DNA from: an uncultured Gammaproteobacteria bacterium
GTDB taxonomy: Bacteria; Patescibacteriota; Patescibacteriia; UBA9570; CAZNEH01
Assembly: GCA_964572175.1 (NCBI GenBank)
Contig: CAZNEH010000001.1
Location: forward strand, 9,788-73,787
Reading direction: 5' to 3'
DNA: 64,000 nucleotides
How positions within the stretch are numbered: position 1 is the stretch's first letter; each line of letters begins with the position of its first letter. The position numbers were made by a program, and so were the translations under genes. The notes under the pieces were generated by a model. It saw only the letters and a list, made by a program, of their open reading frames with translations, was not told where the DNA came from and did no database searches. Positions 257 through 46,036 of this stretch are shown in pieces.

Positions 257-293
257 ACTAACCAGAGCATTCATACTTCCACATAAAACAAGT

Positions 294-1196: not shown

Positions 1197-1235
1197 TATT
1201 GCCAATTTAGTTATATAAGGATATATTATCTTTAT

Positions 1236-2384: not shown

Positions 2385-2393
2385 TATAAATAT

Positions 2394-3101
2394 ATGAATA
2401 TATTAACATTACATGAGAAACGTGAAACACTAAAGGGAACTAAAATTATTAGACTTCTAAAGCACTTAGCTGTAACTCACTATTCTTTTAGGGTTAATTA
2501 TAATGAATTATCAAAACTAATAAATATATTTGAGAAAGATGATGAAATAATATATTTAAAAAATAGAGAAAAAATAGATCGATTACTATATGAATTTTCT
2601 CGTTTATTATTAAATTATATAAGTTCAGTATCGACTTTTGTTGATCACGTTAGACGAGTTAGACATAAATTAAATAATGATAAAATTGATAGGCAGTTTA
2701 AAAAAGAATTAGATAATATATCAAAAGACGAGAATATAATTTTTTTAAAGGATTTACGTAATTACACAATACATGAAAAGTTGCCAGAAGTGGCAGCTAA
2801 TTTTACTCTTAAAAATCAAGTAAATGGTCAAAATAATAATCAGGAATTAGGCATAGTTAAGGAGGCTATACTTGAGTCGACTTATTGGACAAGAGGGTCT
2901 AAAGATTTTTTGTCAAAACAAGCAAAAATGATTCCAATAAAAAAAATATTAAATAGTCATTATCAAGTATTTAATGATTTTCAAGAAAAATTTTATAAAT
3001 TAGTTACAGAAGAATATAAAAATGAAATACAGGATTTAATCGAAGTTGAAAGACAGATGAATAAATGGATGAATAAAAAACAACCAAAAGAGGATAATTA
3101 A
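2394..3101 (+). CDS. hypothetical protein (island cargo)
   Basis: Long ORF in AT-rich coding context with no recognisable motif. Confidence 0.45.
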   Translation: MNILTLHEKRETLKGTKIIRLLKHLAVTHYSFRVNYNELSKLINIFEKDDEIIYLKNREKIDRLLYEFSRLLLNYISSVSTFVDHVRRVRHKLNNDKIDRQFKKELDNISKDENIIFLKDLRNYTIHEKLPEVAANFTLKNQVNGQNNNQELGIVKEAILESTYWTRGSKDFLSKQAKMIPIKKILNSHYQVFNDFQEKFYKLVTEEYKNEIQDLIEVERQMNKWMNKKQPKEDN

Positions 3102-3127
3102 TTCTATTTACCTCATTAGTTTAATTT

Positions 3128-3685
3128 TTAATTTTGAAAAGTTAAGATTAATTTGTTGAGAATAGTTATTAATTCTTCTTTTGCTGGCTCACCATTTAAG
3201 TTTGATATCTCTCCACTATAATACTTATCTTCGTATTTAAAATCAAAAGCAAGTGAAGAATGAGCATTTGTAAGCATAGTTCCATTTAGTTCGTAGTCTT
3301 CTTCGTAGCCAATTTGAACTTCAATGTTATTAATAGTTTTAGTAGATTTTTCCAATGGATAAGTTTCAGCATGTATATCAAGATTTTCATTGCTACTAGT
3401 TAACGCTACAGAGAAATCACTATTACCGGCTGGGCTATAAGTATAAATTCCCGCTTGAGAACTTTTTAAAGTAAAACCAGATAATTTATTTAAATTAACA
3501 CCTTGCTCTACTTCTTCATGGTTTACATTTGAAGTTTGCGAACTAGTTTTATTAGTATTTCCATCTTTTTCATCATCCTTAGGAGTTAACATTAAAATTA
3601 CAACTCCCAAGATAATAATTAGTAAAATAGCGATACCAATTTTTTCAGAAGCAATTAATTTTGGCTTCTTTTTTTCTTCTTTCAT
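3128..3685 (-). CDS. hypothetical membrane-anchored/secreted protein
   Basis: N-terminal hydrophobic helix IGIAILLIIILGVVILML follows a basic N-terminus. Ser/Thr/Asn-rich ectodomain. Confidence 0.5.
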   Translation of the reverse strand: MKEEKKKPKLIASEKIGIAILLIIILGVVILMLTPKDDEKDGNTNKTSSQTSNVNHEEVEQGVNLNKLSGFTLKSSQAGIYTYSPAGNSDFSVALTSSNENLDIHAETYPLEKSTKTINNIEVQIGYEEDYELNGTMLTNAHSSLAFDFKYEDKYYSGEISNLNGEPAKEELITILNKLILTFQN

Positions 3686-3730
3686 TTTGATTGTTCATTA
3701 ATTATTATTTTCTGCCAACCAAAAAAGGCG

Positions 3731-3854
3731 ACAGGATTAGTTGGCACTACGTAATAGTTCCCAAAGGAATTCTTACGCTCCTGCCGCCATCTCTATTCGT
3801 AAGAATAAGAGATAACGACTATGAGTCGTCCTTTGGGTTTAATTACGTAGTGCC
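3731..3854. repeat. long imperfect inverted repeat / branched stem-loop (~125 nt)
   Basis: Arms TGGCACTACGTAAT...ATTACGTAGTGCCA, CCCAAAGGA...TCCTTTGGG and CTTACG...CGTAAG are nested. An internal ACGAC-tatga-GTCGT side hairpin is also present. Confidence 0.6.
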
Positions 3855-3991
3855 ATTTACTATTATAGCAGAAAAGTAAGTAAAGTTAAGTATTTTATCT
3901 ATCTGGCATTATTAGAAGTAAATTTTTCAATTGAATATTATATAATTAATATAGAGGGAAAAAGCATTTTTTTACATATTTTTACACTTTT

Positions 3992-4387
3992 ATGAACGAT
4001 ATTGAGCAAAAAGCCTGTGAATTAAAATACTCGGGCATAAAATATAAGAAAATGTCTGAATTATTGGATGTTAATTACGATACTTTAGTTAGCTGGTTTA
4101 GAAAAGATGGGAAGATATATCAAGATTATCAGGAATATGCCATAGAAACGAATAGGCAAGCTAAATTAAGGGCTATTAATTTACTGACTAATAATGTCGA
4201 AAGAGCAATTGAAGTGCTAGTTAATGAAATGCATAATAGCGATTCTTCACAGGCAAAAATCAAAGCAGCGTGCGAGATACTAAATAGAGTTATTAAAAAT
4301 AATGAAACGCAGGAAAATGAAGAAACTATGACATGGGAGGATTATGTAACATTAAGGGAAAAAGAGATGGGGAATAACGGTAAGTAA
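3992..4387 (+). CDS. small HTH-type DNA-binding protein (putative regulator / terminase-small-like)
   Basis: KYSGIKYKKMSELLDVNYDTLVSWFRK has a helix-turn-helix character. Located within the island. Confidence 0.4.
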   Translation: MNDIEQKACELKYSGIKYKKMSELLDVNYDTLVSWFRKDGKIYQDYQEYAIETNRQAKLRAINLLTNNVERAIEVLVNEMHNSDSSQAKIKAACEILNRVIKNNETQENEETMTWEDYVTLREKEMGNNGK

Positions 4388-4672
4388 ATTTTTAAAGCTT
4401 AAATGCTACCATTATAGTAGAGGGGAAAACGCTAAAATATTAGCAAAAAAATACACTTATAGCGGCAGTGTTTAAACAACCGCTCCGAATACTGGTCTAA
4501 TGGAGAAAAAATAAAAGACCAACTATATAGATGAGGTAGCCCAGCAAGACTTGAGCACAGAGGCCTCTAGAATAAACAATCTGCTGTACCCCAAGGCGAC
4601 AAATAATTCTTTTTTAAGAGTTGTTAGTCTATTTGTCCGGGGGGAGTAATAATACATTATAATATATAATTT

Positions 4673-4834
4673 ATGTCTAAAAGAAAGAATCAATTTAGAA
4701 AACCTAAATTAATACAATATAGATCAGTTTGGTTAACTCAAAAGGGGTATGAATTATTAAGGTTAGCAAAAAAGGAAGAGAAAAAATCTATGATGGCAAT
4801 TGTTAATGAATTAATTAAGGAAAAATATAAATAG
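4673..4834 (+). CDS. ribbon-helix-helix (CopG/Arc-like) small protein, candidate excisionase/regulator (53 aa, not in ORF track)
   Basis: ATG at 4673 after a TATAAT at 4660. Translation MSKRKNQFRKPKLIQYRSVWLTQKGYELLRLAKKEEKKSMMAIVNELIKEKYK has a beta-strand then two helices. It ends 3 nt before the second integrase. Confidence 0.55.
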   Translation: MSKRKNQFRKPKLIQYRSVWLTQKGYELLRLAKKEEKKSMMAIVNELIKEKYK

Positions 4835-4837
4835 TAG

Positions 4838-5743
4838 ATGGAATTAAGAGAAGCTTTTAAACAATTTATTGTTGAAAGTCAAAATGGACGCTTTGCTTAT
4901 AATTCTGATAAAACTATTTTGAAACATAAAAATGTTTTTGAGCTTTTTGTAAAATGGATTCCGACAGAAAGAGTTCAAGATTTAAATGAAGAGCTGTTAT
5001 GGAGATATTTTAATAAAGGAGAAACTACTCGAGACTGGAAACCATCAACCGTGATAACTAATCGTACTAGTCTTTCAAGATTTTTAGATTGGTGCGTGAT
5101 TAATAAATTATTAAAAGAAAATCCTATAAAAAAAATTCCACGACCAAGATTAATTAAAAACACTCCCGACTATTATAGCGAGGAGGAAATTGACAAGATT
5201 TTGTATACTGTCAACAAATTATTTAAACGACAATTAACTAGAGCGAGAAACATGGCAATGATAGGGATTATGTTATTGGCAGGCCTTAGAAAGGGTGAAT
5301 TATTAAAACTAAAAATAACTGATGTTGATTTCAGTAATAAAGTTATAAGAATTAGAGCAGAAAATGCAAAAAATAGGAAGCCTAGGTCTCTGAATATAAG
5401 TCATAAATTAGAAGAACTACTAAAGGTTTATATTTCGTTGAGAGAGAAAAAAGGGATCAAAGCTTATAGCTTATGGGTATCATCAAATAATCATGCTCCA
5501 CTAACTGAAAATGGTTATAATCATATATTAGAAACGTTATCAGAGGGGGTTGGATTTAAGGTTAAATCTCATAAGTGTAGGCATACCTTTGCAACTTACG
5601 CATATAAAGGATGTAAAGATATTATGGCAGTAAAAGATGCCTTAGGACATGCTGATTTAAAAACCACGCTAGTTTATGCTACTCCCTTAGCTGAATCTAC
5701 TAAGTTAACTATAGAAGTTAATCCGATAAATGATTTGTTTTAA
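4838..5743 (+). CDS. tyrosine site-specific recombinase / integrase (second copy)
   Basis: HKCRHTFATYAY...GHADLKTTLVYA catalytic signature. Shares N-terminal blocks with the 294..1196 product. Confidence 0.85.
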   Translation: MELREAFKQFIVESQNGRFAYNSDKTILKHKNVFELFVKWIPTERVQDLNEELLWRYFNKGETTRDWKPSTVITNRTSLSRFLDWCVINKLLKENPIKKIPRPRLIKNTPDYYSEEEIDKILYTVNKLFKRQLTRARNMAMIGIMLLAGLRKGELLKLKITDVDFSNKVIRIRAENAKNRKPRSLNISHKLEELLKVYISLREKKGIKAYSLWVSSNNHAPLTENGYNHILETLSEGVGFKVKSHKCRHTFATYAYKGCKDIMAVKDALGHADLKTTLVYATPLAESTKLTIEVNPINDLF

Positions 5744-5789
5744 TTAAGTTTTTTTAGTATTATATTATTATTAACTAATAATAATATAA

Positions 5790-7055
5790 ATGAAAATATT
5801 TAATAAACACTTACATGACATTACTTATGATGAAATAATATCTTTTTGCAATGAAGGGCATATAGAAAGTTTATATTTAGATTACAAAGAAGATGTGAGT
5901 AGATCAAATTCAGTTGCTAAAACTTCAGCGGCAATGGCAAATTCTTTTGGCGGAATAATAATAATAGGTGTTGCTGATGACAATAATTATCCTAAATTAC
6001 CTGTAAAGGGTCTAGATAAATTAACAGAGGAGCAAATTACTCAAATAATTTCAGATAACACATTTCCACTAATTACACCAGAAATAAAAGTATATAAAAA
6101 AGCTAATCGATATTTAGGTATAGTTAGAGTTAAGCCATCGCAATCTACTCCAATTTTTTTTACTAAAGATAATACTATTCCTGTTAGAGTTAATAATATT
6201 ACAAAAAAATTTGAAGATAATGCAGATTTAAAACAGTTAGATTGGTTATGGAATAATAGAAAAAAATCTATAGAACTTTATGAAAATTGTTTATCATTTG
6301 CCAGGGATACTTTCGAAAAACAACGAAGTAATTTACATGGATTGGAATCTTTAATTGAAGCAAAAAAAGATCCATATTCTCCCCGCATGGTTAACTCTAA
6401 ACGCTTGTTAAGAGATCCGCATTATTTTCCAAATAGAATCGAAATATTTTCTCGACCTATTTATCCTGATATTACCCCCTTGAAAAATCCGAAAGAATTA
6501 AATGATATTTTTCCGAAAATTAATGTAAATGTAGATGAAAATTGCGGAGAGTTTCCAAGAAATATTCACAAAAGACGACGTATTTCCGGTGGTAGTATTA
6601 TTCAAGAATTAAAATCTAGAGGTTTAATTTATACCGAAATTAATCAATATGGATTATATTATCATAATGAAAAAATAATTATGCAAGATTATGATTTAAT
6701 GATTGATGAACATTATAACATTGACCATTTAACAAGCGAAGCTATAGCAGTATTAAAATGGCCAGTATTAAAAGGAGTGTTTATTTCCTTTTTAGAGTCT
6801 TTAAAACTATTTTATAAAGAAATTGAATATTATGGATATATTGAAATTGGTATAAAGCTTTTCTCTGTAAATACTATGCAATTAATTAAGGAGCAAATAG
6901 AAACTGAATTATATGATTCTCCTTTAGGCGCTTACTCAGTTGATGATTATATAAATTGGGATAGTGGAATTATCAATGTTTCAGAAATTGATAATAATTT
7001 AATAAATGATCTCGAAGAATACATTGATGATTTATTCGATTATAAAAAAAGATAA
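5790..7055 (+). CDS. AlbA_2 (Schlafen-like / divergent AAA_4) DNA-binding domain protein
   Basis: ESLYLDYKED...AAMANSFGGIIIIGVADD matches the AlbA_2 E..lEfK...AfaNt.GG.iiiGv.d signature. Confidence 0.6.
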   Translation: MKIFNKHLHDITYDEIISFCNEGHIESLYLDYKEDVSRSNSVAKTSAAMANSFGGIIIIGVADDNNYPKLPVKGLDKLTEEQITQIISDNTFPLITPEIKVYKKANRYLGIVRVKPSQSTPIFFTKDNTIPVRVNNITKKFEDNADLKQLDWLWNNRKKSIELYENCLSFARDTFEKQRSNLHGLESLIEAKKDPYSPRMVNSKRLLRDPHYFPNRIEIFSRPIYPDITPLKNPKELNDIFPKINVNVDENCGEFPRNIHKRRRISGGSIIQELKSRGLIYTEINQYGLYYHNEKIIMQDYDLMIDEHYNIDHLTSEAIAVLKWPVLKGVFISFLESLKLFYKEIEYYGYIEIGIKLFSVNTMQLIKEQIETELYDSPLGAYSVDDYINWDSGIINVSEIDNNLINDLEEYIDDLFDYKKR

Positions 7056-7207
7056 TTATTACTTTCTTTTTATAATATTATTTGTTATTATTTAAGTATT
7101 AATTATTAAGTGGAAGTACCCAGCGGTTAATACTGTTTATACTCACTGAAACAAGTAGTTTAAATCTAACCTTAGCCGAAAAACAAGGATTTTAAAACCT
7201 CGACCTA

Positions 7208-7254
7208 CCATGGTAAGGGAAAGGTCCGCGGTTCGAATCCGCGCAACGGCTCCA
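7208..7254 (+). tRNA. 3' fragment of the disrupted tRNA-Thr(GGU) (anticodon loop, 3' anticodon stem, variable loop, T-arm, acceptor 3' strand, CCA)
   Basis: CCATGGTAAGG-GAA-AGGTC-CGCGGTTCGAATCCGCG-CAACGGC-T-CCA. Perfectly complementary to the 29..68 5' half. Confidence 0.7.
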
Positions 7255-7326
7255 ATAAGCTACCCGAAAGGGTGGTTTTTTTTAACATTGACAAAAGCCA
7301 TAAAAATAGGGTATATTAATAGTACA

Positions 7327-10789: not shown

Positions 10790-10869
10790 TATTTCTTAAT
10801 ATAAAAAAACTCACCGCGCGACTCGCTTGATGACGAATCGCTTGGTGAGGGGTCCCGGGGCTTGGATCC

Positions 10870-11076
10870 CTAGGCGGTCATGGGGAGGTCAGAGTTCAGG
10901 AAGGCCTGGGAGGTCGCCATGAAGGCTTCCATTTCCCCGGAGGCGGCGATGGCACCTAGGTCGACCTGGTGAAGCAGGGCGCTGCCCTCTTGTTTGTTGT
11001 AGACCAGGTTCGGTTGTCCGTCGAGGGTGAGGATGCCCACAGTTCCTTGCATTTCGAACTTCCACTTGTCGTTCAT
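10870..11076 (-). CDS. GC-rich small protein (68 aa) in a solitary cassette
   Basis: Minus-strand promoter TTGACA (11148..11143) - N17 - TAAGGT (11125..11120). The ORF has high GC (~60%, by eye) in a ~35% GC genome. Downstream minus-strand terminator hairpin CTCACC...GGTGAG plus T7 at ~10800..10850. Confidence 0.5.
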   Translation of the reverse strand: MNDKWKFEMQGTVGILTLDGQPNLVYNKQEGSALLHQVDLGAIAASGEMEAFMATSQAFLNSDLPMTA

Positions 11077-11389
11077 GTCGGCTCACTTTCAGGGCTTTGC
11101 CCTTTTGAGATTCACCCCAACCTTACCCATTTATAATGAAATTGTCAACCTATCTACGGTAGACAGGCTTTGTTTGGGGGTATGGAGGGTTTTGGAGGTG
11201 GGGGAGGGGGATTTGGAAGTGGCTCAACAAAAAAGCCGACAGTTTTTGTCGGTGTTTGTGGAGTTGTTGAGGAGTGAAATTGTTTGATATTTGCTAAGCT
11301 TGATTTAAAGTCTTATTAAGTGTTATAATATATTTACTTGTGGATAAACATAGATATTTAATAAATTCATTATTATTTAAATAAATACA

Positions 11390-24222: not shown

Positions 24223-25860
24223 CTAGTCTATCCTAAGTTTGTGGATATATCGAGAATTTTTAATTTTATTGCCATCTTGCCAAAGTTGGAAGGTTAGGGT
24301 GTTTTTCTTTTTCTTTAAACCAGAAATGTCTTGAAGATTGAAAGTAAAATGTCCGCGAGAAGGGTTGTCGACTTTAGCGTCGTCGAGGTAAGTTAAGAAT
24401 TCTCCATTAACATATAAGGCAGTGTCATCAGCGCGCCAAGTAGAGGTGCCTTTGTTTTTATAGTTTAAAGTTACTTCTGGGTTCCAGCCTTCTTGAATAG
24501 CGGTGGGTAAATTTTGGTTTTTTAAGACCGCGTGGTAAGGACTGTCGACACGATAGGTGATGTAGGTGCGGGACTTGGAAATATACTGATCCTCGTCGCG
24601 GAAAAGACGTAAGGAAATAGTGTGTTCGCCGCGAGTATCAAAATCCCATTTAAAATTAAAAGTATATTCTTCTCCTACAGCGACTTTTTCTTTAATGTAG
24701 ATTTTTTTCTTTTGTAAAGTTTCAGGGTCGCGGACTTTTAAGTAGACTTTGTTTTTTGGAAAGTTTCGTTCTCCAGTATTTTTATATTTAACAGTAATAG
24801 TTTCTTGGGTGTCGATTAAGTAAGCAGTATCGAAAGAGTGTTCTTTTAGCTTGGCCTTACGGGCTTTAGCCACTTGTAAAGAAGAATATTTGTTTTTAGA
24901 TTTACTTATAATAGTATCTAGTTGGTCGTAGATTAGATTGCCCGGACAAGCAGTGTAATCAATATCTTTGTGGCCAATAACCGCATCAACCATAGAGCCT
25001 TGTAAGTTTCGTTGACCGTTTAAAGAAATACTTAGGTCAGAGGCTTTGTTAGAAATTAGATTAGTTAAAGCACTTTGGATTTGAGAAGTGTATTCATCAG
25101 GTTCTGAACAAGCAGTTTCGTCGTAGCAGCCCATAACAGAGATGCCAATGGTGTACTGGTTGTAATCTATATTAGTGTAATCATTATAAGCATGAGCTCC
25201 GATAACTTTGTCGCCTCCGTAGCGGCCTTCGTAGATGTTTCCGCTTTTGTCGATAAGGTAATTATAACCAATGTCGCCCCAGCCTAGGATTTGAGCGTGA
25301 TAATAGTAAATACCACGAACTGTGGCCATTGGGTCGTCTCCGCCATCAGAGCCGGCAGTGTGGTGAATAACAAAAGTTGTAGGCTCGGTATAGCTTGGTT
25401 CCCAAAAACGATAGCTATCATCAGCGCCCCATTCGTCGCGAGTAACTACGTCGATGCTGTATTTGGTTTGGAGTAATTCTAATTCTGTGGAAACAGAGTT
25501 GGTTAGAGATGGCTCTGGAGCTGGACGAGAATCGAAATAAGAAATTTCTAAAGGAACGTTAGTTGAGATATTTAGCTGAGTGCTTATTTCAAAGATAGGA
25601 TCAGAGAAATAATGACCAGGATTACCAGGATAAGCTCCTTCCATTGCCTCTATTAAAGTATTATTTATTGTTATTTTAGGATTTGAGTATTCTTTAGACC
25701 ATTTTACGCCAAAGCCGTTGAATTCAAAGTCTGTAGTGATTTGATAGTCACCTGGGTCTATATTTATTGTGTTAGAAGTAGTTTCGGCTAAAACTGTGGA
25801 AGAAAATAAAAAACTTGCTAAAAGCAAGAATGAAATTATTAAGAAAGTATTTTTTTTCAT
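24223..25860 (-). CDS. secreted N-acetylmuramoyl-L-alanine amidase (Amidase_2/PGRP domain) with C-terminal beta-rich domains
   Basis: Signal peptide. Motifs VIHHTAG, GWGDIGYNYLIDKSGNIYEGR and ACPGN are typical of Amidase_2. Confidence 0.75.
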   Translation of the reverse strand: MKKNTFLIISFLLLASFLFSSTVLAETTSNTINIDPGDYQITTDFEFNGFGVKWSKEYSNPKITINNTLIEAMEGAYPGNPGHYFSDPIFEISTQLNISTNVPLEISYFDSRPAPEPSLTNSVSTELELLQTKYSIDVVTRDEWGADDSYRFWEPSYTEPTTFVIHHTAGSDGGDDPMATVRGIYYYHAQILGWGDIGYNYLIDKSGNIYEGRYGGDKVIGAHAYNDYTNIDYNQYTIGISVMGCYDETACSEPDEYTSQIQSALTNLISNKASDLSISLNGQRNLQGSMVDAVIGHKDIDYTACPGNLIYDQLDTIISKSKNKYSSLQVAKARKAKLKEHSFDTAYLIDTQETITVKYKNTGERNFPKNKVYLKVRDPETLQKKKIYIKEKVAVGEEYTFNFKWDFDTRGEHTISLRLFRDEDQYISKSRTYITYRVDSPYHAVLKNQNLPTAIQEGWNPEVTLNYKNKGTSTWRADDTALYVNGEFLTYLDDAKVDNPSRGHFTFNLQDISGLKKKKNTLTFQLWQDGNKIKNSRYIHKLRID

Positions 25861-25909
25861 GTTTTTATTTTAGGGCGTTATTCTATTATAGCAAAAAAAA
25901 GAGCCCTCG

Positions 25910-26166
25910 TCAAGATGAATCGAGGAGGGCGAGAGGATCGTCCTGGCGGACGTGTTGTGATCGCTTGAGGGTCGGCAGCCAGTTGGGTACCTCGCGAAGC
26001 TGGGTGATGGTTCGTTGCCCAGAGATGCCGTGGTAGCCTTGGAGTGGTCCAGAGCGAATCTTGGTCCACCGGGGATGGTTGGTGAAGACCCACCAGCCAC
26101 GTTCGTTTTTGACTCGCAAGAAGATGATGGTGTGTCCGTCTTTGCGAGAGACGTAGGATTCGAACA
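25910..26166 (-). CDS. GC-rich small protein (85 aa) in a solitary cassette
   Basis: Minus-strand promoter TTGACT (26223..26218) - N17 - TATAAG (26200..26195), GGAG ribosome-binding site, ATG at 26166 (MFESYVSRKDGHTIIFLRVKNERGWWVF...). High local GC. The 123-aa track ORF is trimmed to this start. Confidence 0.5.
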
Positions 26167-26241
26167 TGAGTTTCTCCGGGTTGAGGTGTAGTTTTCTTAT
26201 ATCATTGATTTTAACTTGAGTCAAGGGTATAATAAAGACAT

Positions 26242-26934
26242 ATGAAAATAAAACAAGATTTAAAAAAATTAGCTGATCCAAAAAGAGCGAAAAGCTCTCA
26301 AGGGTTTTTTAAGACTGGGCCAGGGGAATATGGAGAAGGTGACAAGTTTTGGGGAATTAGAGTTCCTCAACAAAGAGAAGTGGCTAAGAAGTATAAGGAT
26401 TTACCACTAAAGCAAGTAGAAAAATTATTACAAGATAAAGTGCATGAAGTTAGATTAACAGCCTTGTTTATTTTACGGCACCAGTTTAAGAATAACCCAG
26501 ATGAGGCTTATAAGGTTTACATGAAAAATGCTAAGTATTGTAATAACTGGGATTTAGTGGACTCATCTGCGCCGTATATTTCTGGGCCGTATTTATTAGA
26601 TAAAGATCGTAAGGTTTTGTATAAATTTGCTAAGTCGAAGAATTTATGGGAAAAGAGAATTGCCATTATTTCTACTTTTGCTTTTATTAGAGAAAATGAT
26701 TATAAGGATGCCTTGAAATTGGCAGAGATCTTATTAAAAGACGAGCATGATTTAATGCATAAGGCCATTGGATGGATGTTGCGGGAAGTGGGGAATCGAG
26801 ATTTAGCAGTTGAAGAAAAATTTTTGAAAAAACATTATCAAAAAATGCCGCGAACCATGTTGCGGTATGCCATTGAGAAGTTTTCCCCAGCTAAGCGTAA
26901 ATTTTACATGAAAAAGACCCTTGCTAAGAAGTAG
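26242..26934 (+). CDS. DNA alkylation repair protein (AlkD/AlkC-like HEAT-repeat glycosylase family)
   Basis: Overall similarity to the DNA_alkylation family (KRAKSSQGFFKTGPGEYGEGDKFWGIRVP...). TTGATT-N17-TATAAT promoter. Confidence 0.7.
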   Translation: MKIKQDLKKLADPKRAKSSQGFFKTGPGEYGEGDKFWGIRVPQQREVAKKYKDLPLKQVEKLLQDKVHEVRLTALFILRHQFKNNPDEAYKVYMKNAKYCNNWDLVDSSAPYISGPYLLDKDRKVLYKFAKSKNLWEKRIAIISTFAFIRENDYKDALKLAEILLKDEHDLMHKAIGWMLREVGNRDLAVEEKFLKKHYQKMPRTMLRYAIEKFSPAKRKFYMKKTLAKK

Positions 26935-27843: not shown

Positions 27844-27889
27844 TGTTATAAGTATAGCCTAATTCTTGAATAAAAAAAAGCAGCCCCCA

Positions 27890-28111
27890 CTAGTGGCAGA
27901 TCTCGGAGATCGTTTCGCCACAGCGAGGGCAGTAGAAGGGATAGATGCCAGACGGACGCCAGGCCTTGGTGACACTTCCACGAAGAGCAGTGATGCATTG
28001 GCGGCATCCACGAACCTTGACTTGAAGGACTTGCTTGTCATGGAGCTTGGTTCCGCAGCCGATGCAGAACTTGTTGTCGTTCTGAGAGCTGAATTGGCAG
28101 CATGGCTTCAT
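27890..28111 (-). CDS. GC-rich Cys-rich zinc-ribbon small protein (73 aa) in a solitary cassette
   Basis: Minus-strand TTGACT (28171..28166) - N16 - TAAACT. Ribosome-binding site GGGGGA, then ATG at 28111. MKPCCQFSSQNDNKFCIGCGTKLHDKQ...CRQC...CPRCGETISEICH has multiple CxxC pairs. Confidence 0.5.
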   Translation of the reverse strand: MKPCCQFSSQNDNKFCIGCGTKLHDKQVLQVKVRGCRQCITALRGSVTKAWRPSGIYPFYCPRCGETISEICH

Positions 28112-28242
28112 GAGTTCCCCCTGAAAGAGCTTGAGTTGTACCAAGTTTACTAGAAATAGAGATAAAGTCAAATTGTGGATAAGATTTTGGGGATATGGTA
28201 TACTAAAAGAGTATTAATTTAAAATAATTAACTTAAAAAATT

Positions 28243-34287: not shown

Positions 34288-36777
34288 ATGGATGAAGGAA
34301 TGTTATTTTTTGGCCTAGTTTTAGTGGCTTTTACTTGCTACGCTGGGTTTAAGTTTAAATCTCGAGCCATGCGTTATATTGGCTTGTTTTTTAGTATTGT
34401 TATCGCTTTATTTTTTCTTTTGAATAATATTGCCTTTGCTCAAACTGATTTTGATTTAAGTGAATTAAATCAGTTTACAGGAGAGGATTTAGCTGATTTT
34501 GCAGGAAAAAGCGTTAGTTATGCTGGGGACGTAGATGGTGATGGATATAATGATTTTATAGTTGGGGCTGATCAGAATGATGATGGCGGAAATCAAGCCG
34601 GAGCAGCTTATTTAATTTATGGGCAGTCTGAAGAATATTCTTCATTAACTGATTTATCAACGGTAGCTAAATTTATTGGAGAAGCAGGTGGTGATTATGC
34701 TGGAAAAAGCGTTAGTTATGCTGGGGACGTAGATGGTGATGGATATGATGATTTTTTAATTGGAGCTTATTTAAATGATGATGCCGGAAGTCAGGCCGGA
34801 GCAGCTTACTTAATTTATGGGCAAAGCGATAAGTATACAGGAGATATTGATTTGTCTACTAAGGCACAATTTACCGGAGAGGCAATTGATGATTATGCGG
34901 GGGTAAATGTATCCTCGGCTGGTGATGTAGATGGTGATGGATATGATGACTTTTTAGTTGGGTCTAGTAGAAATGGAGATGGAGCAAGTAAAGCTGGTGC
35001 AGCTTATTTAATTTATGGACAAAGCGCTGATTATACTGGAACAATTAGCTTGTCTACTAGGGCACAATTTACTGGAGAGGCAATTGATGATTATGCTAGT
35101 AAGGTTTCAGCAGCTGGAGACGTAGACAATGATGGGTATGATGATTTTTTAGTTGGATCTAAAGATAATGATGACGGAGGAAGCGGTGCTGGTGCAGCTT
35201 ATTTAATTTATGGACAAAGCGCTGATTATACTGGAACAATTAGCTTGTCTACTAGGGCACAATTTACCGGAGAGGCAGCTGGTGATTCTTCGGGAGTATC
35301 TGTTGCTGCGGCCGGTGATGTTGATAATGACGGATACGATGATATTTTAATTGGAGCATTTTTAAATGACGATGGTGGAAGTCAAGCTGGAGCAGTTTAT
35401 TTAATATATGGCCAAAGCGCCGATTATACTGGAACGTCTAACTTGTCTACTAAAGCACAATTTACCGGAGAGGCAGCTGGTGATGACGCAGGGGTAAGTG
35501 TAGCTTCGGCTGGAGATGTTGATAATGATGGGTACGATGATTTTTTAGTAGGAGCTTATTTAAATGATGCTGGTGGAGATATTGCCGGAGCAGCTTATTT
35601 AATTTATGGGCAAAGCGCGGATTATACAGGAACAGCTAGTTTGTCTACTAAGGATAAGTTTATTGGAGAAGAATCATTGGATTATGCAGGAATAAGCGTA
35701 TCGACAGCTGGTGATATTAATAATGATGGTTATAGTGATATTTTAATAGGGGCTTATCAAAATAGTGAGGGTGGAAGTCTGGCTGGAGCAGCTTATGTGG
35801 GTTATTTGCATATTGATTTAGATGGAGACGGGGTAACAGCTACTACTAGCTTAATTGCCGGAACTGATTGTAATGATAATGACGCAGCAATTTCTGCTAA
35901 TCAAACTTATTATCAGGATTCAGATGGCGATGGTTATGGCTCAGACACTACTACTTCGGTTTGTTCTTTAACAGCGCCGACAGGCTATGTGGCTAACTCA
36001 GATGATGCTAATGACAATGATTATGATAATGATGGCTCAGAAACCGGAACTGATTGCGATGATACTGATGATACTATTAGTGAGAATCAAACTTATTATC
36101 TAGATTCAGATGGAAATGGGTATGGTGATCCAGCAGAGACCACAGAGGTTTGTTCTTATACTGTGCCAGATGGTTATGCGTCTGAGGCTCGACTAGATGT
36201 GCCAGAAAATTTAGTTAATACAGACAGAGGAATTTATAAGGCTACTTTAGGTTGGGATGAAGTTAGTGATGTAGAAAGTTATAATATTAGATATAGAAAG
36301 TCTTCTGAATCAAGCTATACGACTACTACTAGTTCTATAAATAGTGTGGAGTTGGAAGATTTAGAAAATGCGGGAAAATATTATTGGCAAGTACAGGGGG
36401 TATCTGGTAGTTATACTTCAGAATGGACAGATGGAAAAAGATTAGTAACTTATCCAAGAAAGATAACTAAGTCTGAATTTACTTTTCCTAAGTCTGATAG
36501 AAAAGCAAAGAAGCTTAGAATAAAAATAGAGACTATGGCTAAAAGAGTGACTGGTTTTAATATTTTAGTTTATAAAAAGAAGAGTGGAAAGTGGAGTAAA
36601 ATAGAAACAGTTAAAAGATCTAATGATAGTTCTAAGAATTATGTTTATAAATATATTACTGGGTTAAAGCCAGATACTAAATATAAGTTTGAAGTAAAAG
36701 CTAGGAGAACTATTGGTTCAACTAAATACTTAAGTCAGAACGTAGCCACCAGATATATTACGACTAAATCGCTATGA
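34288..36777 (+). CDS. secreted FG-GAP (integrin-alpha-like) repeat beta-propeller protein with MopE-like Cys repeats and Lys-rich FN3-like C-terminal domain
   Basis: Seven or more repeats of AGDVDGDGYDDFL(I/V)GA...AGAAYLIYGQS. CNDND/CDDTD Cys motifs. Basic C-terminus. Confidence 0.8.
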   Translation: MDEGMLFFGLVLVAFTCYAGFKFKSRAMRYIGLFFSIVIALFFLLNNIAFAQTDFDLSELNQFTGEDLADFAGKSVSYAGDVDGDGYNDFIVGADQNDDGGNQAGAAYLIYGQSEEYSSLTDLSTVAKFIGEAGGDYAGKSVSYAGDVDGDGYDDFLIGAYLNDDAGSQAGAAYLIYGQSDKYTGDIDLSTKAQFTGEAIDDYAGVNVSSAGDVDGDGYDDFLVGSSRNGDGASKAGAAYLIYGQSADYTGTISLSTRAQFTGEAIDDYASKVSAAGDVDNDGYDDFLVGSKDNDDGGSGAGAAYLIYGQSADYTGTISLSTRAQFTGEAAGDSSGVSVAAAGDVDNDGYDDILIGAFLNDDGGSQAGAVYLIYGQSADYTGTSNLSTKAQFTGEAAGDDAGVSVASAGDVDNDGYDDFLVGAYLNDAGGDIAGAAYLIYGQSADYTGTASLSTKDKFIGEESLDYAGISVSTAGDINNDGYSDILIGAYQNSEGGSLAGAAYVGYLHIDLDGDGVTATTSLIAGTDCNDNDAAISANQTYYQDSDGDGYGSDTTTSVCSLTAPTGYVANSDDANDNDYDNDGSETGTDCDDTDDTISENQTYYLDSDGNGYGDPAETTEVCSYTVPDGYASEARLDVPENLVNTDRGIYKATLGWDEVSDVESYNIRYRKSSESSYTTTTSSINSVELEDLENAGKYYWQVQGVSGSYTSEWTDGKRLVTYPRKITKSEFTFPKSDRKAKKLRIKIETMAKRVTGFNILVYKKKSGKWSKIETVKRSNDSSKNYVYKYITGLKPDTKYKFEVKARRTIGSTKYLSQNVATRYITTKSL

Positions 36778-42129: not shown

Positions 42130-42191
42130 ATTTTTTTATTTTAATGATTCTTTAATTATAACACAATATCTATAAAATAAATAAATTTTAG

Positions 42192-42220
42192 TTGACAGGG
42201 GTAGTTTATTTAGGTAAGAT
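42192..42220 (+). promoter_or_regulatory. sigma-70-type promoter TTGACA-N17-TAAGAT (first cassette)
   Basis: TTGACA 42192..42197, GGGG-containing spacer, TAAGAT 42215..42220. AGGAGG ribosome-binding site at 42241. Confidence 0.6.
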
Positions 42221-42252
42221 ATTTACGAATCCACAAGCAAGAGGAGGAAATC

Positions 42253-42507
42253 TTGCAAGGACAGACACAGAGAGACAAGCATCCGGCCAAGCATGGCTGG
42301 GTCAAGGTCAAGAAGCTGGTGAACAACTCTCGTGGCCGACGGCGCCCGAAGCGCGTCTGGGTCCAGAGCGGCGATGCTCCTGGTAAGAAGGAGGAGCGCA
42401 TCAGGGCCAAGAAGAAGCGCGAGGCTCAGCAGAGAGCGGCAGCTCAAGAGGCCCGGAGGAAAAGGGATGAAGAGGAGCGCCGAGCAGCACGCCGCCGCTG
42501 GTGGTAG
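42253..42507 (+). CDS. highly basic Lys/Arg-rich small protein (84 aa), TTG start
   Basis: AGGAGG lies 6 nt upstream of the TTG start. KRK/RRR-rich sequence. GC-rich codons. Confidence 0.45.
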   Translation: MQGQTQRDKHPAKHGWVKVKKLVNNSRGRRRPKRVWVQSGDAPGKKEERIRAKKKREAQQRAAAQEARRKRDEEERRAARRRWW

Positions 42508-42533
42508 CTGGTTTTCAGCGACGAGTGTGAATA

Positions 42534-42578
42534 CCCCCCCCTGCAGCTCTACGGAGTTGACAGGGGTTATTTTTTTAT
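42534..42578 (+). terminator. terminator hairpin CCCCTG-N17-CAGGGG plus T-run, with the next promoter's -35 (TTGACA) embedded in the 3' arm
   Basis: CCCCCCCTG cagctctacggagttga CAGGGG TTATTTTTTT, followed by TATACT 18 nt after TTGACA. Confidence 0.55.
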
Positions 42579-42624
42579 TCTATACTTACATTACAATTTT
42601 TCAAACCGACGAAGGAAGATTCCC

Positions 42625-42834
42625 ATGAAGATGCTCAAGTGCGAGAACTGTGGATACCCTATGCCAGTATCTGGCAAAATCAACGAAGATGATGGCCTGC
42701 GGTGCCCGATCTGCAACGGGCTGATGAAGAAGCCTGGGGCCGGGGAGCCGACGACCGAGGTGGACATCACCGAACGTCCCTTCATTCCGCCGCGGCCACT
42801 GCCGCCGCCGACCGAGATCCCGGCCTACGCTTAG
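42625..42834 (+). CDS. zinc-ribbon small protein (69 aa)
   Basis: CENC...CPIC pairs. Ribosome-binding site GAAGGAAG. Pro-rich C-terminus. Confidence 0.5.
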   Translation: MKMLKCENCGYPMPVSGKINEDDGLRCPICNGLMKKPGAGEPTTEVDITERPFIPPRPLPPPTEIPAYA

Positions 42835-42961
42835 GCCAAGGACAACTTCGCGGGCATTAGCCCCACGACCCTAGGATGAGATTCATCTGATGGGTCGCTT
42901 TTTTTGACTAAAACAGGGTGGGGTGGTAGGCTAAAGTTAGCGTAAACCAAGGGAGGTACGC

Positions 42962-43348
42962 ATGTGTGAGAAAAGGTATTTCTTCGATGATCGTCAGTCC
43001 ACCCAGTTCAAGTGCGTCTGCGGGGGATCGGTCGTGGTTCTGGAGCATGATGCTCAGGCCGAGAAGATCGGGTGTCAGTCCTGCGGCAAGACGGCTCGGG
43101 TTCGTCCGAGTGCTTCTCCAGACACTCTGATCGAGTGCCAGCCGGAGAAGTGGTCGGGGACGAACTTCTACCTCGAGAACCATGGGCCCGACAAGGGCTG
43201 GACTCACTGCGGCCAGCCCATGGTGATCATCGGTCGTCTGGATGCTCACCTGTGGCCAGTTGGCTGCCAGGTCTGTGGAGCCATGGGCCATGTCGGACAC
43301 AACTCCACGCCCGAGGACTGGCCGCCCGACGGCAGCTGCTCTGGCTAG
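42962..43348 (+). CDS. Cys-rich small protein, family A member 1 (128 aa)
   Basis: Ribosome-binding site AAGGGAGG. Shares HCG(Q/R)(P/T)MVIIG...GCQVCG...H.G.N...W.P with the 45593..45934 product. Confidence 0.55.
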   Translation: MCEKRYFFDDRQSTQFKCVCGGSVVVLEHDAQAEKIGCQSCGKTARVRPSASPDTLIECQPEKWSGTNFYLENHGPDKGWTHCGQPMVIIGRLDAHLWPVGCQVCGAMGHVGHNSTPEDWPPDGSCSG

Positions 43349-43370
43349 AGCACACAACGACTTGTTCGAT

Positions 43371-43404
43371 GACCTATATTGGGGGATATAGGTCATATTT
43401 TTTT
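43371..43404 (+). terminator. rho-independent terminator (GACCTATAT family)
   Basis: GACCTATAT-tggggg-ATATAGGTC plus T-run. Confidence 0.7.
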
Positions 43405-43486
43405 CCGCCTTCGCAGACTGCGGCGGACAAGTTTGACTCTAATGGGGTGGGATGGTAGGGTTAAATTAACAAGGGAGGATTTAGAA

Positions 43487-43882
43487 ATGTCTAAGAGAAG
43501 TGAACCTTTTGACGCTTGCTTGGCTGGCTGGATGGAGTTGGAAGAGATGATGCTTCGGGATCGGCCCCCAGTTCGAGCGAGGAAGCTCAAGAAAGGGATG
43601 CTGAAGCGCTGGTCCTGGGTGACCAATTCCCGCGGGAAAAAGGTTCGGCGTAAGACCTGGGGTAAGCCTGGTCCGCCGCCGAAGCCTCGTTCGGGTAATC
43701 TAGTGGCCTTCAACGCTTCGGATCAGTGGCGGCTGCACCGGGCGGCTGGAGTTAAGAGCCGGAGGGACTGGGATAGGCTGACCACTTGCCAACAGGACGA
43801 GGTTTTTATGAAGGCCCTGGAAGATGGTTTGGAGCCCTTTAGCCTGGTCGATGGCTATCGGCACTTCTGCCGTGGCGACTAA
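43487..43882 (+). CDS. basic small protein (131 aa), start trimmed to the ATG with a ribosome-binding site
   Basis: AGGGAGG lies 7 nt upstream of the ATG at 43487. Promoter TTGACT-N17-TAGGGT at 43433..43461. Confidence 0.5.
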   Translation: MSKRSEPFDACLAGWMELEEMMLRDRPPVRARKLKKGMLKRWSWVTNSRGKKVRRKTWGKPGPPPKPRSGNLVAFNASDQWRLHRAAGVKSRRDWDRLTTCQQDEVFMKALEDGLEPFSLVDGYRHFCRGD

Positions 43883-43991
43883 CCCCTGTTCAACCCGAGT
43901 GGTTGACAGGGGGTATTTTTATTTGGGTTGACCCGGGGAGGGTTTTGTGCTAAGGTTAGGGCGCCTAATTCACAAAGGGAGGGCACACAAA

Positions 43992-44462
43992 ATGCTCGGT
44001 TTGATTTCCAGAGGCTGGCATATGTTCATGGGTCTGTGGGTGGAAGATATCGAGACGGTTCGCGGTGTTCCGCTGAAGCCTGGAGTGGTTCACGACCTCT
44101 TCATCTGCGGTGGCTGGCCGTTCAAGGCCGAGATCGTGCCGGAGTACGTGGCGATCAGGCCCAGGGGCGAGACCTGGCCGCTGGACTACGGTATGATGTC
44201 CAAGAGCTTCCGGCACCGTGACTCCAAGGCGCTGCAGGCCTACAACTGGTCCATGGTGCGTCGGACCGATGGCGGTCCCATGTTCGAGTGCGACCACAAC
44301 ATCTTCGTCCTCCGCGTCCACAAGGGTGAACTTCCTCGACATGATCACTTCATCGCACGCGAGGGGCGTGATTTCTCTGAGGCCCAGGTCTTAGAGGTCA
44401 TCGACGACGAGAAGGATCTGATCATGTGCGTCTGGATCCGCGAGGCCGGGCTCGTCGAGTAG
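43992..44462 (+). CDS. small protein, family B member 1 (156 aa)
   Basis: AGGGAGG ribosome-binding site. N-terminus MLGLISRGWHMFMGLWV is paralogous to MLSWLARPWNSFIGLWV of the 45252..45554 product. The ~70-bp promoter/5'UTR is near-identical to the one at 45182..45251. Confidence 0.55.
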   Translation: MLGLISRGWHMFMGLWVEDIETVRGVPLKPGVVHDLFICGGWPFKAEIVPEYVAIRPRGETWPLDYGMMSKSFRHRDSKALQAYNWSMVRRTDGGPMFECDHNIFVLRVHKGELPRHDHFIAREGRDFSEAQVLEVIDDEKDLIMCVWIREAGLVE

Positions 44463-44484
44463 CGGCGAAGACAACTAGTTCGAT

Positions 44485-44518
44485 GACCTATATCGGGGGG
44501 ATATAGGTCGTTTTTTTA
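44485..44518 (+). terminator. rho-independent terminator (GACCTATAT family)
   Basis: GACCTATAT-cgggggg-ATATAGGTC-G-T7. Confidence 0.7.
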
Positions 44519-44586
44519 TTGACTTAGAGTGGGGGAGATGTTAGGGTAAAAATAGTGTTCAACTTCAACCCCGAGCTCGAGGTGAG

Positions 44587-44799
44587 ATGATGAAAGGTGC
44601 TGCTCTCAGCTGTGTTCCCTGTGACTGGACGGCGACTGATGTGTCCAATGCAAGGTTCTGTCCGTTCTGTGGAGATGATCTGGAGAAGAAGGGAGTCCTG
44701 GGCAAGAAGGTTCCCTTCCGGGTGAAGCTCTTGGCCCGCGTGCCCGTGACCGCGAGGCTCAGGCGCCTGGCTTCTATCTTCGGGGAAGACAAGCGCTAG
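44587..44799 (+). CDS. zinc-ribbon small protein (70 aa)
   Basis: CVPC...CPFC pairs. Promoter TTGACT-N17-TAGGGT at 44519..44547. Confidence 0.5.
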   Translation: MMKGAALSCVPCDWTATDVSNARFCPFCGDDLEKKGVLGKKVPFRVKLLARVPVTARLRRLASIFGEDKR

Positions 44800-44927
44800 A
44801 CAGCGACGACGAGGTAAGTGTGGGCCGTGCCCGCCATAGTCCTGATTCATATCGGGACGACGGCGGGTCTATTTTTTTGACTAAAAAAACAGGGGATGTT
44901 AGAGTATTATTATCAAGGGGGAAAGAC

Positions 44928-45143
44928 ATGGATTTTAGTATTTTTCTAGTGGCAATGATCGTGGCTTCACTGGGCCTGGGTAAACACTTCGTTTTCAGGG
45001 GCGCAGAAAAAATGGATCGCTTCAAAAAGAATACGGGGCGCACCGTTACAGAGCGAGAAGAGGTACACGAGGCAGAGGGCCTTCTTCTGGCAGGGGGCAT
45101 CCTGATTTTCTTGGCGTTCAATGCCGCGATGTTCATTCTTTAG
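44928..45143 (+). CDS. small two-TM membrane protein (71 aa)
   Basis: Ribosome-binding site AAGGGGGA, ATG at 44928. Two hydrophobic helices. Promoter TTGACT-N17-TAGAGT at 44877..44905. Confidence 0.45.
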   Translation: MDFSIFLVAMIVASLGLGKHFVFRGAEKMDRFKKNTGRTVTEREEVHEAEGLLLAGGILIFLAFNAAMFIL

Positions 45144-45251
45144 CCCGCTACAGTCTTCGGACCACGGCGGGTTCTTTTTTTATTTGGGTTGACTCGGGAG
45201 GGTTTTGGTGCTAAGGTAAGGGCGCCTAATTCACAAGGGAGGGCATGTAAG

Positions 45252-45554
45252 ATGTTGTCATGGTTGGCTAGACCGTGGAATTCATTCATTGGTCTGTGGG
45301 TTCATGGTGCCCCTCAGATCGAGGATCAGCAGGTTTCCGAGCCGCTGCAGGTCGACGAGGTCGAGCTGGTGGTCGGGGAGACCTTCTTTTTCCAGAGGGA
45401 CAAGTTCTTCATCGTGATCACCTGGAGTGCTCGCAGCGCGCGGCGTCCGGTGGTCGGCGATCGGATCAAGGGATCGTCTGGGCAGGACGCGATCGTGCTG
45501 TCGACCATTCCTGGAGAGAAGAACAAGTACCTCTGCCGGATCATGATCGACTAG
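45252..45554 (+). CDS. small protein, family B member 2 (100 aa)
   Basis: AGGGAGG ribosome-binding site. Paralogue of the 43992..44462 product. Co-transcribed with the downstream family A gene, with no intervening terminator. Confidence 0.55.
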   Translation: MLSWLARPWNSFIGLWVHGAPQIEDQQVSEPLQVDEVELVVGETFFFQRDKFFIVITWSARSARRPVVGDRIKGSSGQDAIVLSTIPGEKNKYLCRIMID

Positions 45555-45592
45555 GCAGAGCAGAACTACACGAATCACACGAGGAGGTGTGC

Positions 45593-45934
45593 ATGTCGGA
45601 AGCGAGGTACCACAAGAACCACTTCGGTCTGAAGGAGGGCTTCGAGCACTGCGGCCGGACCATGGTGATCATCGGATGTGGCGATCGTCTGGAGACGCTC
45701 GGCTGCCAGGTCTGCGGTCACACGCAGCACTCTGGCATGAACACGGAAAACTGGACGCCCACGTCGACGGATGACGAGGACGACGATCCGGAGGAGGAGT
45801 CAGCGCCTCGGCCCTGGCTTCGAGATTCGGGTCCCAGCTCCTGCGAAGGGTGTACTCGTTACGGGGAGACCTGTTCCGGGTCTACCTTCGGAGAATCGTG
45901 CACCGACGCAGATGATGGACACCGTAGCTGGTGA
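45593..45934 (+). CDS. Cys-rich small protein, family A member 2 (113 aa)
   Basis: AGGAGG ribosome-binding site, ATG at 45593. Motif EHCGRTMVIIGCGDRLETLGCQVCGHTQHSGMN is paralogous to the 42962..43348 product. Confidence 0.55.
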   Translation: MSEARYHKNHFGLKEGFEHCGRTMVIIGCGDRLETLGCQVCGHTQHSGMNTENWTPTSTDDEDDDPEEESAPRPWLRDSGPSSCEGCTRYGETCSGSTFGESCTDADDGHRSW

Positions 45935-45940
45935 TTCCAT

Positions 45941-45976
45941 GACCTACACCGGGGGGATGTAGGTCGTATTTTTTTA
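45941..45976 (+). terminator. rho-independent terminator (GACCTA family)
   Basis: GACCTACA-ccgggggga-TGTAGGTC plus T-run. Confidence 0.7.
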
Positions 45977-46036
45977 TTTTGACTAATTTGGGGTGGGGTG
46001 TTAAGGTTAAATTGAAAATAGTAACTTAGAACACTT

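Follow-up and report, generated by a model that had tools for sequence, protein, structure and literature searches.

A GC-Rich 85-Residue Gene With Predicted Expression Signals of Its Own Between an Amidase Gene and alkD in an AT-Rich Patescibacteriota Chromosome

Locus and Gene Features

The DNA considered here, referred to as the window, is a stretch of 64,000 nucleotides from contig CAZNEH010000001.1 (assembly GCA_964572175.1), assigned to the Patescibacteriota, and the subject of this article is ORF85, a short open reading frame (ORF) on the minus strand between an amidase gene and an AlkD-type gene. ORF85 is a genuine protein-coding gene under purifying selection. An initial annotation, made from the letters of the sequence, had described a GC-rich ORF of 85 amino acids at this position between an amidase gene and an AlkD-like gene, which is borne out by base composition and Pfam matches; the ORF that it placed at 25910..26166 actually spans 25910..26167, its end coordinate having been one base off. 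The features of the locus are as follows.

25910..26167, minus strand: ORF85 coding sequence, 85 amino acids, stop codon included (MFESYVSRKDGHTIIFLRVKNERGWWVFTNHPRWTKIRSG...), with ATG at 26167-26165 and TGA at 25912-25910
26174..26177, minus strand: Shine-Dalgarno (SD) site GGAG, 6 nt 5′ of the ATG, read from the sequence
26196..26224, minus strand: candidate ORF85 promoter TTGACT-17-(TG-n-)TATAAG, from the sequence and a relaxed scan
25903..25930, minus strand: predicted terminator hairpin GCCCUC-C-UCGA/UUGA-C-GAGGGC, from folding
25893..25900, minus strand: T8 tract of the predicted intrinsic terminator, from the sequence
25885..25913, minus strand: predicted amidase promoter TTGACG-17-(TG)TATAAT, from a promoter scan (11/12 matches, with TG)
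26205..26233, plus strand: predicted alkD promoter TTGATT-17-TATAAT, from a promoter scan
25900..26190, no strand: GC-rich island of approximately 57% GC, from the GC profile
Neighbor of ORF85: Amidase_2/CARDB protein with a signal-peptide-like N-terminus (Amidase_2, Pfam E 7e-16)
Neighbor of ORF85: AlkD-type DNA_alkylation protein (Pfam E 9e-69)

The GC-rich island (window 25900-26190, approximately 57% GC) coincides with the part of the unit predicted to be transcribed and lies in a genome of 37% GC. ORF85 itself has a GC content of 56.6% against a window mean of 36.6% (standard deviation 7.4%), a value attained by just 0.24% of 258-nt windows outside an array of similar units at 42-46 kb. 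Sharp GC-rich islands are found in the window at 10.8-11.1, 25.9-26.2 (the focal one), and 27.85-28.17 kb, together with a 3.7-kb block at 42.2-45.95 kb. Membership of the Patescibacteria/CPR is also suggested by the best matches of the genes on either side of ORF85. The wider neighborhood of ORF85 is chromosomal in character and includes genes for Amidase_2, AlkD, FKBP, a VTT/DedA-like protein, a BNR protein, and DXP synthase. An independent Logan assembly (L001) contains exactly the focal sequence, which is therefore neither a chimera nor an assembly artefact; a diverged copy is present in another sample (L083). A gene call is absent at the position of ORF85 in both public assemblies examined (L001 and L083), and the exact protein was not found in a collection of 15 billion protein sequences.

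Coding Status and Selection

The GC content of ORF85 at codon positions 1, 2, and 3 (.57/.45/.67) follows the pattern of a GC-rich coding region. Long ORFs commonly arise by chance in GC-rich DNA, and because of this, and because all three minus-strand frames are open here, relatives were sought. The 90%-identity protein cluster that contains AlkD has two further members, and the contigs of these members (L083 and L084) were compared with the window. L083, from the NCBI metagenome assembly GCA_046766155.1, matches the window in gene order (amidase, gap, alkD, FKBP, DedA-like), and the gap between amidase and alkD holds a homologous GC-rich segment with a minus-strand ORF of 83 amino acids (717-968). 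ORF85 and this ortholog are 70% identical in amino acid sequence, without gaps across 80 codons, and many of the replacements are K/R or I/V. The differences are distributed as 19/13/29 over the three codon positions, yielding a nonsynonymous rate (dN) of 0.21, a synonymous rate (dS) of 0.77, and a dN/dS of 0.27, an estimate limited to 80 codons because it is based on one ortholog only. Among the six frames, that of ORF85 has the lowest dN/dS and is the sole low-dN/dS frame free of stops; the mirror frame (dN/dS 0.31) has its third positions in common with ORF85 and contains six stop-containing codon pairs, and the others range from 0.75 to 1.6. A depletion of minus-strand stops (0 observed against 4.1 expected, 4/1000 shuffles) was also considered as a signal and dropped, because it is not significant once the selection of the frame for openness is allowed for.

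The signals around the ORF are likewise kept in L083, including the ATG, the GGAG (GGAGaatcaATG), a T7 tract, the amidase promoter, and the alkD promoter; a terminator hairpin of different sequence (−16.9 kcal/mol) occupies the same place. The flanking genes compared between the window and L083 have dS values of 0.69-1.44 and dN/dS values of 0.04-0.13; the ORF85 protein evolves faster than its neighbors yet is clearly under constraint. Since the dS of ORF85 is in step with that of the flanking genes, the gene predates the split between the strains of the window and L083. A lack of coding conservation and a known housekeeping product had been named in the initial annotation as the outcomes that would count against it; coding conservation is present (dN/dS 0.27 in the coding frame), and neither a housekeeping protein nor any other known protein matches the product.

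Predicted Expression Signals and Layout of the Proposed Transcription Unit

The candidate promoter of ORF85 comprises a −35 element TTGACT at 26224-26219 and a −10 element TATAAG at 26201-26196, with an extended −10 TG at 26204-26203, scoring 5/6 at −35 and 5/6 at −10 with a 17-nt spacer. The standard promoter scan omits it because the −10 ends in G rather than T. Its position is kept in the two related strains (L083 and L084), which have TTGACA..TATAAA and TGGACA..TATAAA there, and it is regarded as plausible but unproven. The initial annotation had the right motif and placed it one base off, at 26223..26195 instead of 26224-26196. The alkD promoter, conserved in L083 and L084, overlaps it back to back on the opposite strand, and this arrangement with a neighboring TTGATT-N17-TATAAT promoter had been correctly recognized (26205-26233, plus strand). 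Since the ATG of alkD lies 8 nt past its −10, the alkD mRNA is probably leaderless. The leader of ORF85, by contrast, would be approximately 21 nt long and carries the GGAG, which was likewise found where it had been proposed as a ribosome-binding site (26177-26174).

At the 3′ end, the terminator hairpin has a folding energy of −14.7 kcal/mol (z −3.46; 0/200 shuffles as stable) and encloses the final 7 codons including the stop, followed by UC and T8. The 3′ arm of the hairpin doubles as the −35 of the amidase promoter, which contains the ORF85 stop codon, so that this promoter, absent from the initial annotation, is interleaved with both the stop codon and the terminator. The hairpin and T8 described in that annotation do exist, but the interval that it gave (approximately 25870..25905) covers just the T-run and the amidase −10, about 25 nt away. 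Furthermore, the amidase 5′ leader of L083 (655-675, compared with window 25862-25880) carries an extra insertion of approximately 17 bp forming a small palindrome (GACGTAGTATGCTACGTC), which is not in the window.

Occupancy of the Slot in Related Strains

The alkD of the third strain, L084, is 91% identical to that of the window, with a dS of approximately 0.9 to both other strains. The same slot in L084 holds an unrelated GC-rich minus-strand ORF (MTCKSSQMHFQIFNGSDF...), which is cut by the contig end; BLASTP yields no alignment between it and ORF85, and the two are dissimilar at the nucleotide level as well. Even so, the L084 ORF shares the GGAG-N6-ATG spacing (GGAGattctcATG) and C-rich third positions, with a cytosine fraction at third positions (C3) of.56 against.50 in ORF85. 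Nucleotide homology of L084 with the window and L083 stops at approximately 26197, i.e., at the −10/transcription start site (TSS), so the whole transcribed segment is what differs. The candidate promoter of ORF85 lies outside the variable GC-rich unit, within the AT-rich alkD promoter region that the strains have in common. The 3′ junction of the L084 slot was not recovered, because the contig ends inside the ORF and only three strains exist.

Searches with the AlkD and amidase proteins revealed only these three strains in public data, the next AlkD being 68% and the next amidase 45% identical. Two family-level relatives (L085 and L086) have neither shared synteny nor comparable islands. The GTDB genomes reached via AlkD gave 80/80 loci at ≤67% identity, none of them syntenic, and the GC islands at those loci consist of tRNAs or of portions of ordinary genes.

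The edges of the island show neither direct nor inverted repeats, and its flanks match only in A/T runs. The sole 3′ inverted repeat of ORF85 is the 10-bp terminator stem, and no repeat is common with the other islands. An attC-like site was not found at ORF85 by inspection and repeat search, the only two methods applied, and there is no recombinase within 20 kb, the tyrosine recombinases of the window lying only at 294-1196 and 4838-5743. A transposon or miniature inverted-repeat transposable element (MITE) was considered and rejected, as terminal inverted repeats and a target-site duplication were not found and only A/T-run matches appeared. The term cassette in the initial annotation gains some support from the unrelated GC-rich ORF in the slot of L084, whereas mobility is not supported, given the lack of repeats and of a nearby recombinase and a dS like that of the flanks; the unit is cassette-like in design, and the comparison documents one replacement event in this slot.

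Shine-Dalgarno Sites and Other GC-Rich Mini-Genes

Only 3/47 host ORFs of at least 120 amino acids have an SD site, and these three carry a perfect AAAGGAGAAA. In many host genes the ATG follows TATAAT by 6-9 nt, suggesting that host mRNAs are widely leaderless. By contrast, SD sites (GGAG, GAGG, or AAGGA, under the same rule) precede 9/12 GC-rich ORFs (3 solitary and 9 in the array), a difference with a Fisher p value of 3e-6.

The array (42190-45975) consists of eight tandem units with nine GC-rich orphan ORFs, several of which encode zinc-ribbon proteins. Within each unit, a TTGAC(A/T/C)-N17/18-TAnnnT promoter precedes a GC-rich orphan ORF with its SD site, and an intrinsic terminator follows. 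The promoter copies are near-identical in sequence (TTGACT...ggggtgggg...TA(A/G)GGT), one terminator hairpin, ATGACCTATAT-GGGGG-ATATAGGTC, recurs at 43369, 44483, and 45939, and two of the ORFs have an HCG..MVIIG...GCQVCG module in common. The array proteins have no match in databases, including viral contigs and 90% clusters, and no recombinase is found near the array (42-46 kb). The final copy of the array promoter (45981-46009) appears to drive an AT-rich host gene at 46037.

ORF85 had been described as the same module type as the array. This holds for the architecture (TTGAC-type promoter, SD site, GC-rich orphan ORF, and intrinsic terminator) and not for the sequence: ORF85 has no relative in the window, and it lacks the array hairpin and the G-rich promoter spacers. 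As a self-contained expression unit for a small protein, the module is upheld by coding conservation and by an unmatched product.

Two further solitary islands were noted. The first (10800-11145) has a TTGACA-17-TAAGGT promoter, an acidic orphan ORF of 68 amino acids (11076-10870, minus strand; C3.52) without a family match, and a very stable terminator (−32 kcal/mol, z −5.2). The second (27850-28175) encodes a double zinc-ribbon protein of 73 amino acids on the minus strand (ATG 28111, stop 27890; Pfam DZR E 5e-5), the C-terminal half of which (VRGC..C...YCPRC) is kept in L083 at 2700-2818; the public gene call at this island, an ORF of 95 amino acids on the opposite strand, is probably wrong.

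Base Composition and Origin

At third codon positions, the GC content (GC3) of the three slot occupants ranges from.67 to.73, and that of neighboring genes from.19 to.35. The GC-rich, SD-led make-up suggests that the gene is foreign and came from a GC-rich donor or a mobile gene pool. The GC skew of the window is strongly positive on the plus strand, with a third-position skew of +0.5 to +0.66 and a cumulative skew that rises monotonically; as there is no switch in skew, the window lies within one replichore. The third-position skew of ORF85 (+0.49 on the plus strand) resembles that of its neighbors (+0.54 and +0.66) despite the minus-strand orientation of the gene, which suggests that ORF85 has long been exposed to the strand-specific mutation pressure of this genome. 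The solitary GC islands in general carry the host skew whatever the gene orientation, and the array ORFs do so more weakly. The simplest account is that ORF85 was acquired from a GC-rich source before the strain split and then retained.

Properties of the Product and Homology Searches

The ORF85 protein has a mass of 10 kDa, an isoelectric point of 10.6 (11.4 in L083), and a net charge of +6 to +9. It is rich in tryptophan, with four conserved residues, and of soluble type, with a grand average of hydropathy (GRAVY) of −0.73 and neither a hydrophobic segment (maximum KD19 0.08) nor a signal peptide. A poor single-sequence AlphaFold model contains four short strands in residues 2-40 and is disordered in the remainder; the N-terminal half is weakly predicted to be β-rich. 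Small, very basic, tryptophan-rich, β-rich proteins most often hint at nucleic-acid binding. As for many small basic proteins and phage morons (see below), nucleic-acid binding or a regulatory or conflict-related role may be proposed for ORF85, as a weak guess to which we give worse than even odds.

ORF85 has no family match in Pfam, PHROGs, PADLOC, or NCBIfam, even at E ≤ 1, and no sequence match in the PDB; a word-based search of 5.8 billion protein clusters was empty. At the DNA and tblastn level, nothing was found in IMG/VR, phage records, viral contigs, or phage and plasmid collections. A phmmer search of 1.84 billion representatives returned eight matches, all to long proteins over 2-7 stretches each, and the six that were scanned with Pfam belong to unrelated repeat families (DUF11/DUF7507, FG-GAP, MBG, and cadherin-like). 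These matches are judged spurious because their E-values sum weak matches over many near-identical repeats. The best of them, a DUF11 repeat junction (W-V..HP..SGP..TIT) occurring about ten times in P0001 (E 1.7e-11), was rejected after hhalign gave a probability of 6%, and the Pfam DUF11/DUF7507 models themselves have no match in ORF85 at E ≤ 1.

The one match in JGI metagenomes, L082, is a 9-residue identity (NHPRWTKIR) in a repeated intergenic element on a contig of 62% GC. It was rejected as a chance match because the pattern was pre-selected, identity with the L083 ortholog is 43%, and there is no extended DNA similarity. L082 carries two copies of this intergenic repeat of approximately 150 nt, at 4900-5070 and 5400-5560 (..GCCAACCATTGTTTGRANCGCGGTCCGTTTCTGACC..ATGACTTACAA..); the repeat is probably one of that organism's repetitive extragenic elements.

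Interpretation and Alternative Explanations

We consider it about 70% probable, judging from sequence comparison, that ORF85 is a genuine gene forming an autonomous, moron-like transcription unit in an AT-rich chromosome, accessory in nature, vertically inherited, and selected. Transcription would start at a σ70-type promoter with an extended −10, placed back to back with the alkD promoter in the same 39 bp, and since the two promoters overlap, RNA polymerase probably occupies just one at a time. The leader of about 21 nt would carry the canonical GGAG, which is unusual against the mostly SD-less or leaderless host genes. The intrinsic terminator over the last codons would end transcription and thereby insulate the downstream amidase gene, whose strong predicted promoter would take its −35 from the 3′ arm of the same hairpin.

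Several points weigh against this interpretation. Only a single ortholog is known. The −10 of the ORF85 promoter (TATAAG; TATAAA in the relatives) lacks the normally invariant final T, and conservation of the promoter could stem from the overlapping alkD promoter instead. Because the context is chromosomal and not that of a prophage, moron is an analogy and not a classification. Furthermore, a retained GC3 of approximately 0.7 is not easily reconciled with long residence after a foreign origin. In a two-state model of GC3 amelioration at synonymous third positions, with drift parameters taken from four flanking genes, the common ancestor of window and L083 would have needed a GC3 of approximately.99 under host-like drift to arrive at the present.75; the fit, on just 55 usable sites, does not separate decay from approximately 99% from a stationary, GC-maintaining model. 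As to function, the single-sequence AlphaFold model has a mean predicted local distance difference test (pLDDT) score of 47, and a Foldseek search of the model against the PDB gave nothing at E < 0.9.

The alternative that survives best, although we regard it as unlikely, is an exchangeable cassette, in which promoterless, SD-led, GC-rich mini-ORFs are repeatedly swapped into a fixed bidirectional-promoter socket. The source pool would be phage, plasmid, or the bacterium on which this epibiont lives, under an integron-like logic with no known integrase. The unrelated GC-rich ORF in the L084 slot with its equal GGAG spacing and C-rich third positions, the end of nucleotide homology at the −10/TSS, a GC3 of approximately.7 without visible amelioration, and the several further GC-rich mini-genes in the window are all in keeping with such exchange. 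However, the dS of.77 between window and L083, like that of the flanking genes, fits vertical descent in place, and the 3′ end of ORF85 is interwoven with the amidase promoter. Neither flanking repeats, nor an attC-like site, nor a recombinase within 20 kb was seen, and the exchange amounts to one replacement event on a contig that ends inside the ORF. A broader idea, which we hold to be more doubtful still, is that the lineage keeps GC-rich, SD-dependent mini-genes under a distinct translation regime, housed in promoter sockets and a tandem array, exchanged without a recognizable integrase or attC, and actively maintained in GC content, with ORF85 as one resident.

A toxin, or one half of a type I or type II toxin-antitoxin module placed between housekeeping genes, would also be a small, strain-variable orphan of foreign composition with its own promoter. 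We consider this very improbable for ORF85, as there is no partner ORF, no hydrophobic segment, no antisense promoter predicted within the unit, and no toxin or antitoxin match in PADLOC, Pfam, or NCBIfam; a type I module in particular was rejected on the GRAVY of −0.73, the maximum KD19 of 0.08, and the lack of an antisense promoter in the scan.

Two explanations are scarcely credible. Islands of high GC content in AT-rich genomes often turn out to be RNA genes, and a structured non-coding RNA with an incidental ORF would account for a GC-rich island with promoter and terminator, for three stop-free minus-strand frames (0 stops against 4.1 expected), and for a plus-strand fold with z = −2.25. 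Nevertheless, the fold of the transcribed minus strand is unremarkable (z = −1.6), Rfam gives no match at E ≤ 1 in 25800-26300, and its covariance models find four tRNAs only in the whole window at the gathering threshold. Codon periodicity and a dN/dS of.27 in one frame, with ATG and SD conserved, largely refute this explanation, and a dual function is possible. A decaying fragment of a larger gene, e.g., one for a surface protein with DUF11/CARDB-type repeats that came from a GC-rich organism, would be in line with phmmer matches to long repeat proteins (best P0001, E 1.7e-11), but that score sums non-independent repeats, there is no Pfam DUF11/DUF7507 match, profile-profile comparison gives 6%, and purifying selection with intact expression signals argues against decay.

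Implications

ORF85 is a real gene missed by the annotations of both public assemblies examined. Together with the likely wrong-strand call at the 27.85-28.17 kb island, this omission implies that gene finders trained on AT-rich Patescibacteria may systematically miss small foreign genes. SD-led mini-genes in a mostly SD-less or leaderless host provide a testable handle on foreign-gene expression in reduced genomes. Accessory-gene flux in ultra-small symbionts is, to our knowledge, poorly understood, and unrelated occupants of one slot in sister strains would, if general, point to small-gene exchange in an ultra-small symbiont lineage. It is the pattern of SD-led, GC-rich mini-genes rather than ORF85 alone that merits population-scale follow-up.

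Other Features of the Window

A tRNA-Thr(GGT) gene lies at 181-256. A second copy of its 3′ part is found at 7209-7255 (83%), and a partial 5′ copy at 29-77. The segment between (257-7255, 23-33% GC) contains two tyrosine integrases (294-1196 and 4838-5743), a DUF4238 protein, and a Schlafen/AlbA_2 protein, which suggests that one or two elements have inserted into the tRNA gene. Long Asp-rich repeat arrays within large secreted proteins lie at 59300-60540 and 34500-35810; the arrays consist of DxDxDGxxD-type units with 87/93-nt periods and include five copies of a 198-nt period.

Comparison With Known Systems

A moron is an added gene with its own promoter, its own factor-independent terminator, and a deviant GC content (PMC3594210). 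Similar to phage morons of the HK97 gp15 type, ORF85 is a single small orphan gene between unrelated genes, at a site where the occupant varies among relatives. The terminator is matched by the hairpin and T8, a structure kept in L083, and the deviant composition by 56.6% GC against 36.6%. As to the promoter, the position of TTGACT-17-TGnTATAAG is kept in three strains, but the −10 lacks the final T and is not called by the scan. The location differs, since the neighbors of ORF85 are chromosomal and no PHROG or phage-record match was found. Also unlike morons, ORF85 occupies an unchanged site in a strain diverged by a dS of approximately 0.8, and its candidate promoter is shared with the host alkD promoter region and did not arrive with the gene.

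Integron cassettes resemble ORF85 in being short single-ORF units in a strain-variable slot, with the variable part downstream of a resident promoter, as L084 shows; elsewhere the window also has a tandem array of similar units, a further likeness. By contrast, ORF85 has no attC, attI, or IntI, the nearest tyrosine recombinases lie more than 20 kb away in the element flanked by tRNA-Thr, and the unit ends in a predicted intrinsic terminator fused to the promoter of the next gene.

Horizontally acquired orphan genes are similar to ORF85 in their deviant GC content and codon usage, in a lineage-restricted product, and in being missed by gene callers trained on the host. Unlike the usual acquired orphans, ORF85 forms a tiny island (a single 258-nt ORF), has an SD site of a kind mostly absent from host genes, and combines a GC3 of approximately.7 with a dS of approximately.8 since the strain split and with the strand skew of the host. 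Overall, ORF85 is a compositionally foreign accessory gene of a familiar kind; the gene itself is ordinary and represents no new kind of system.

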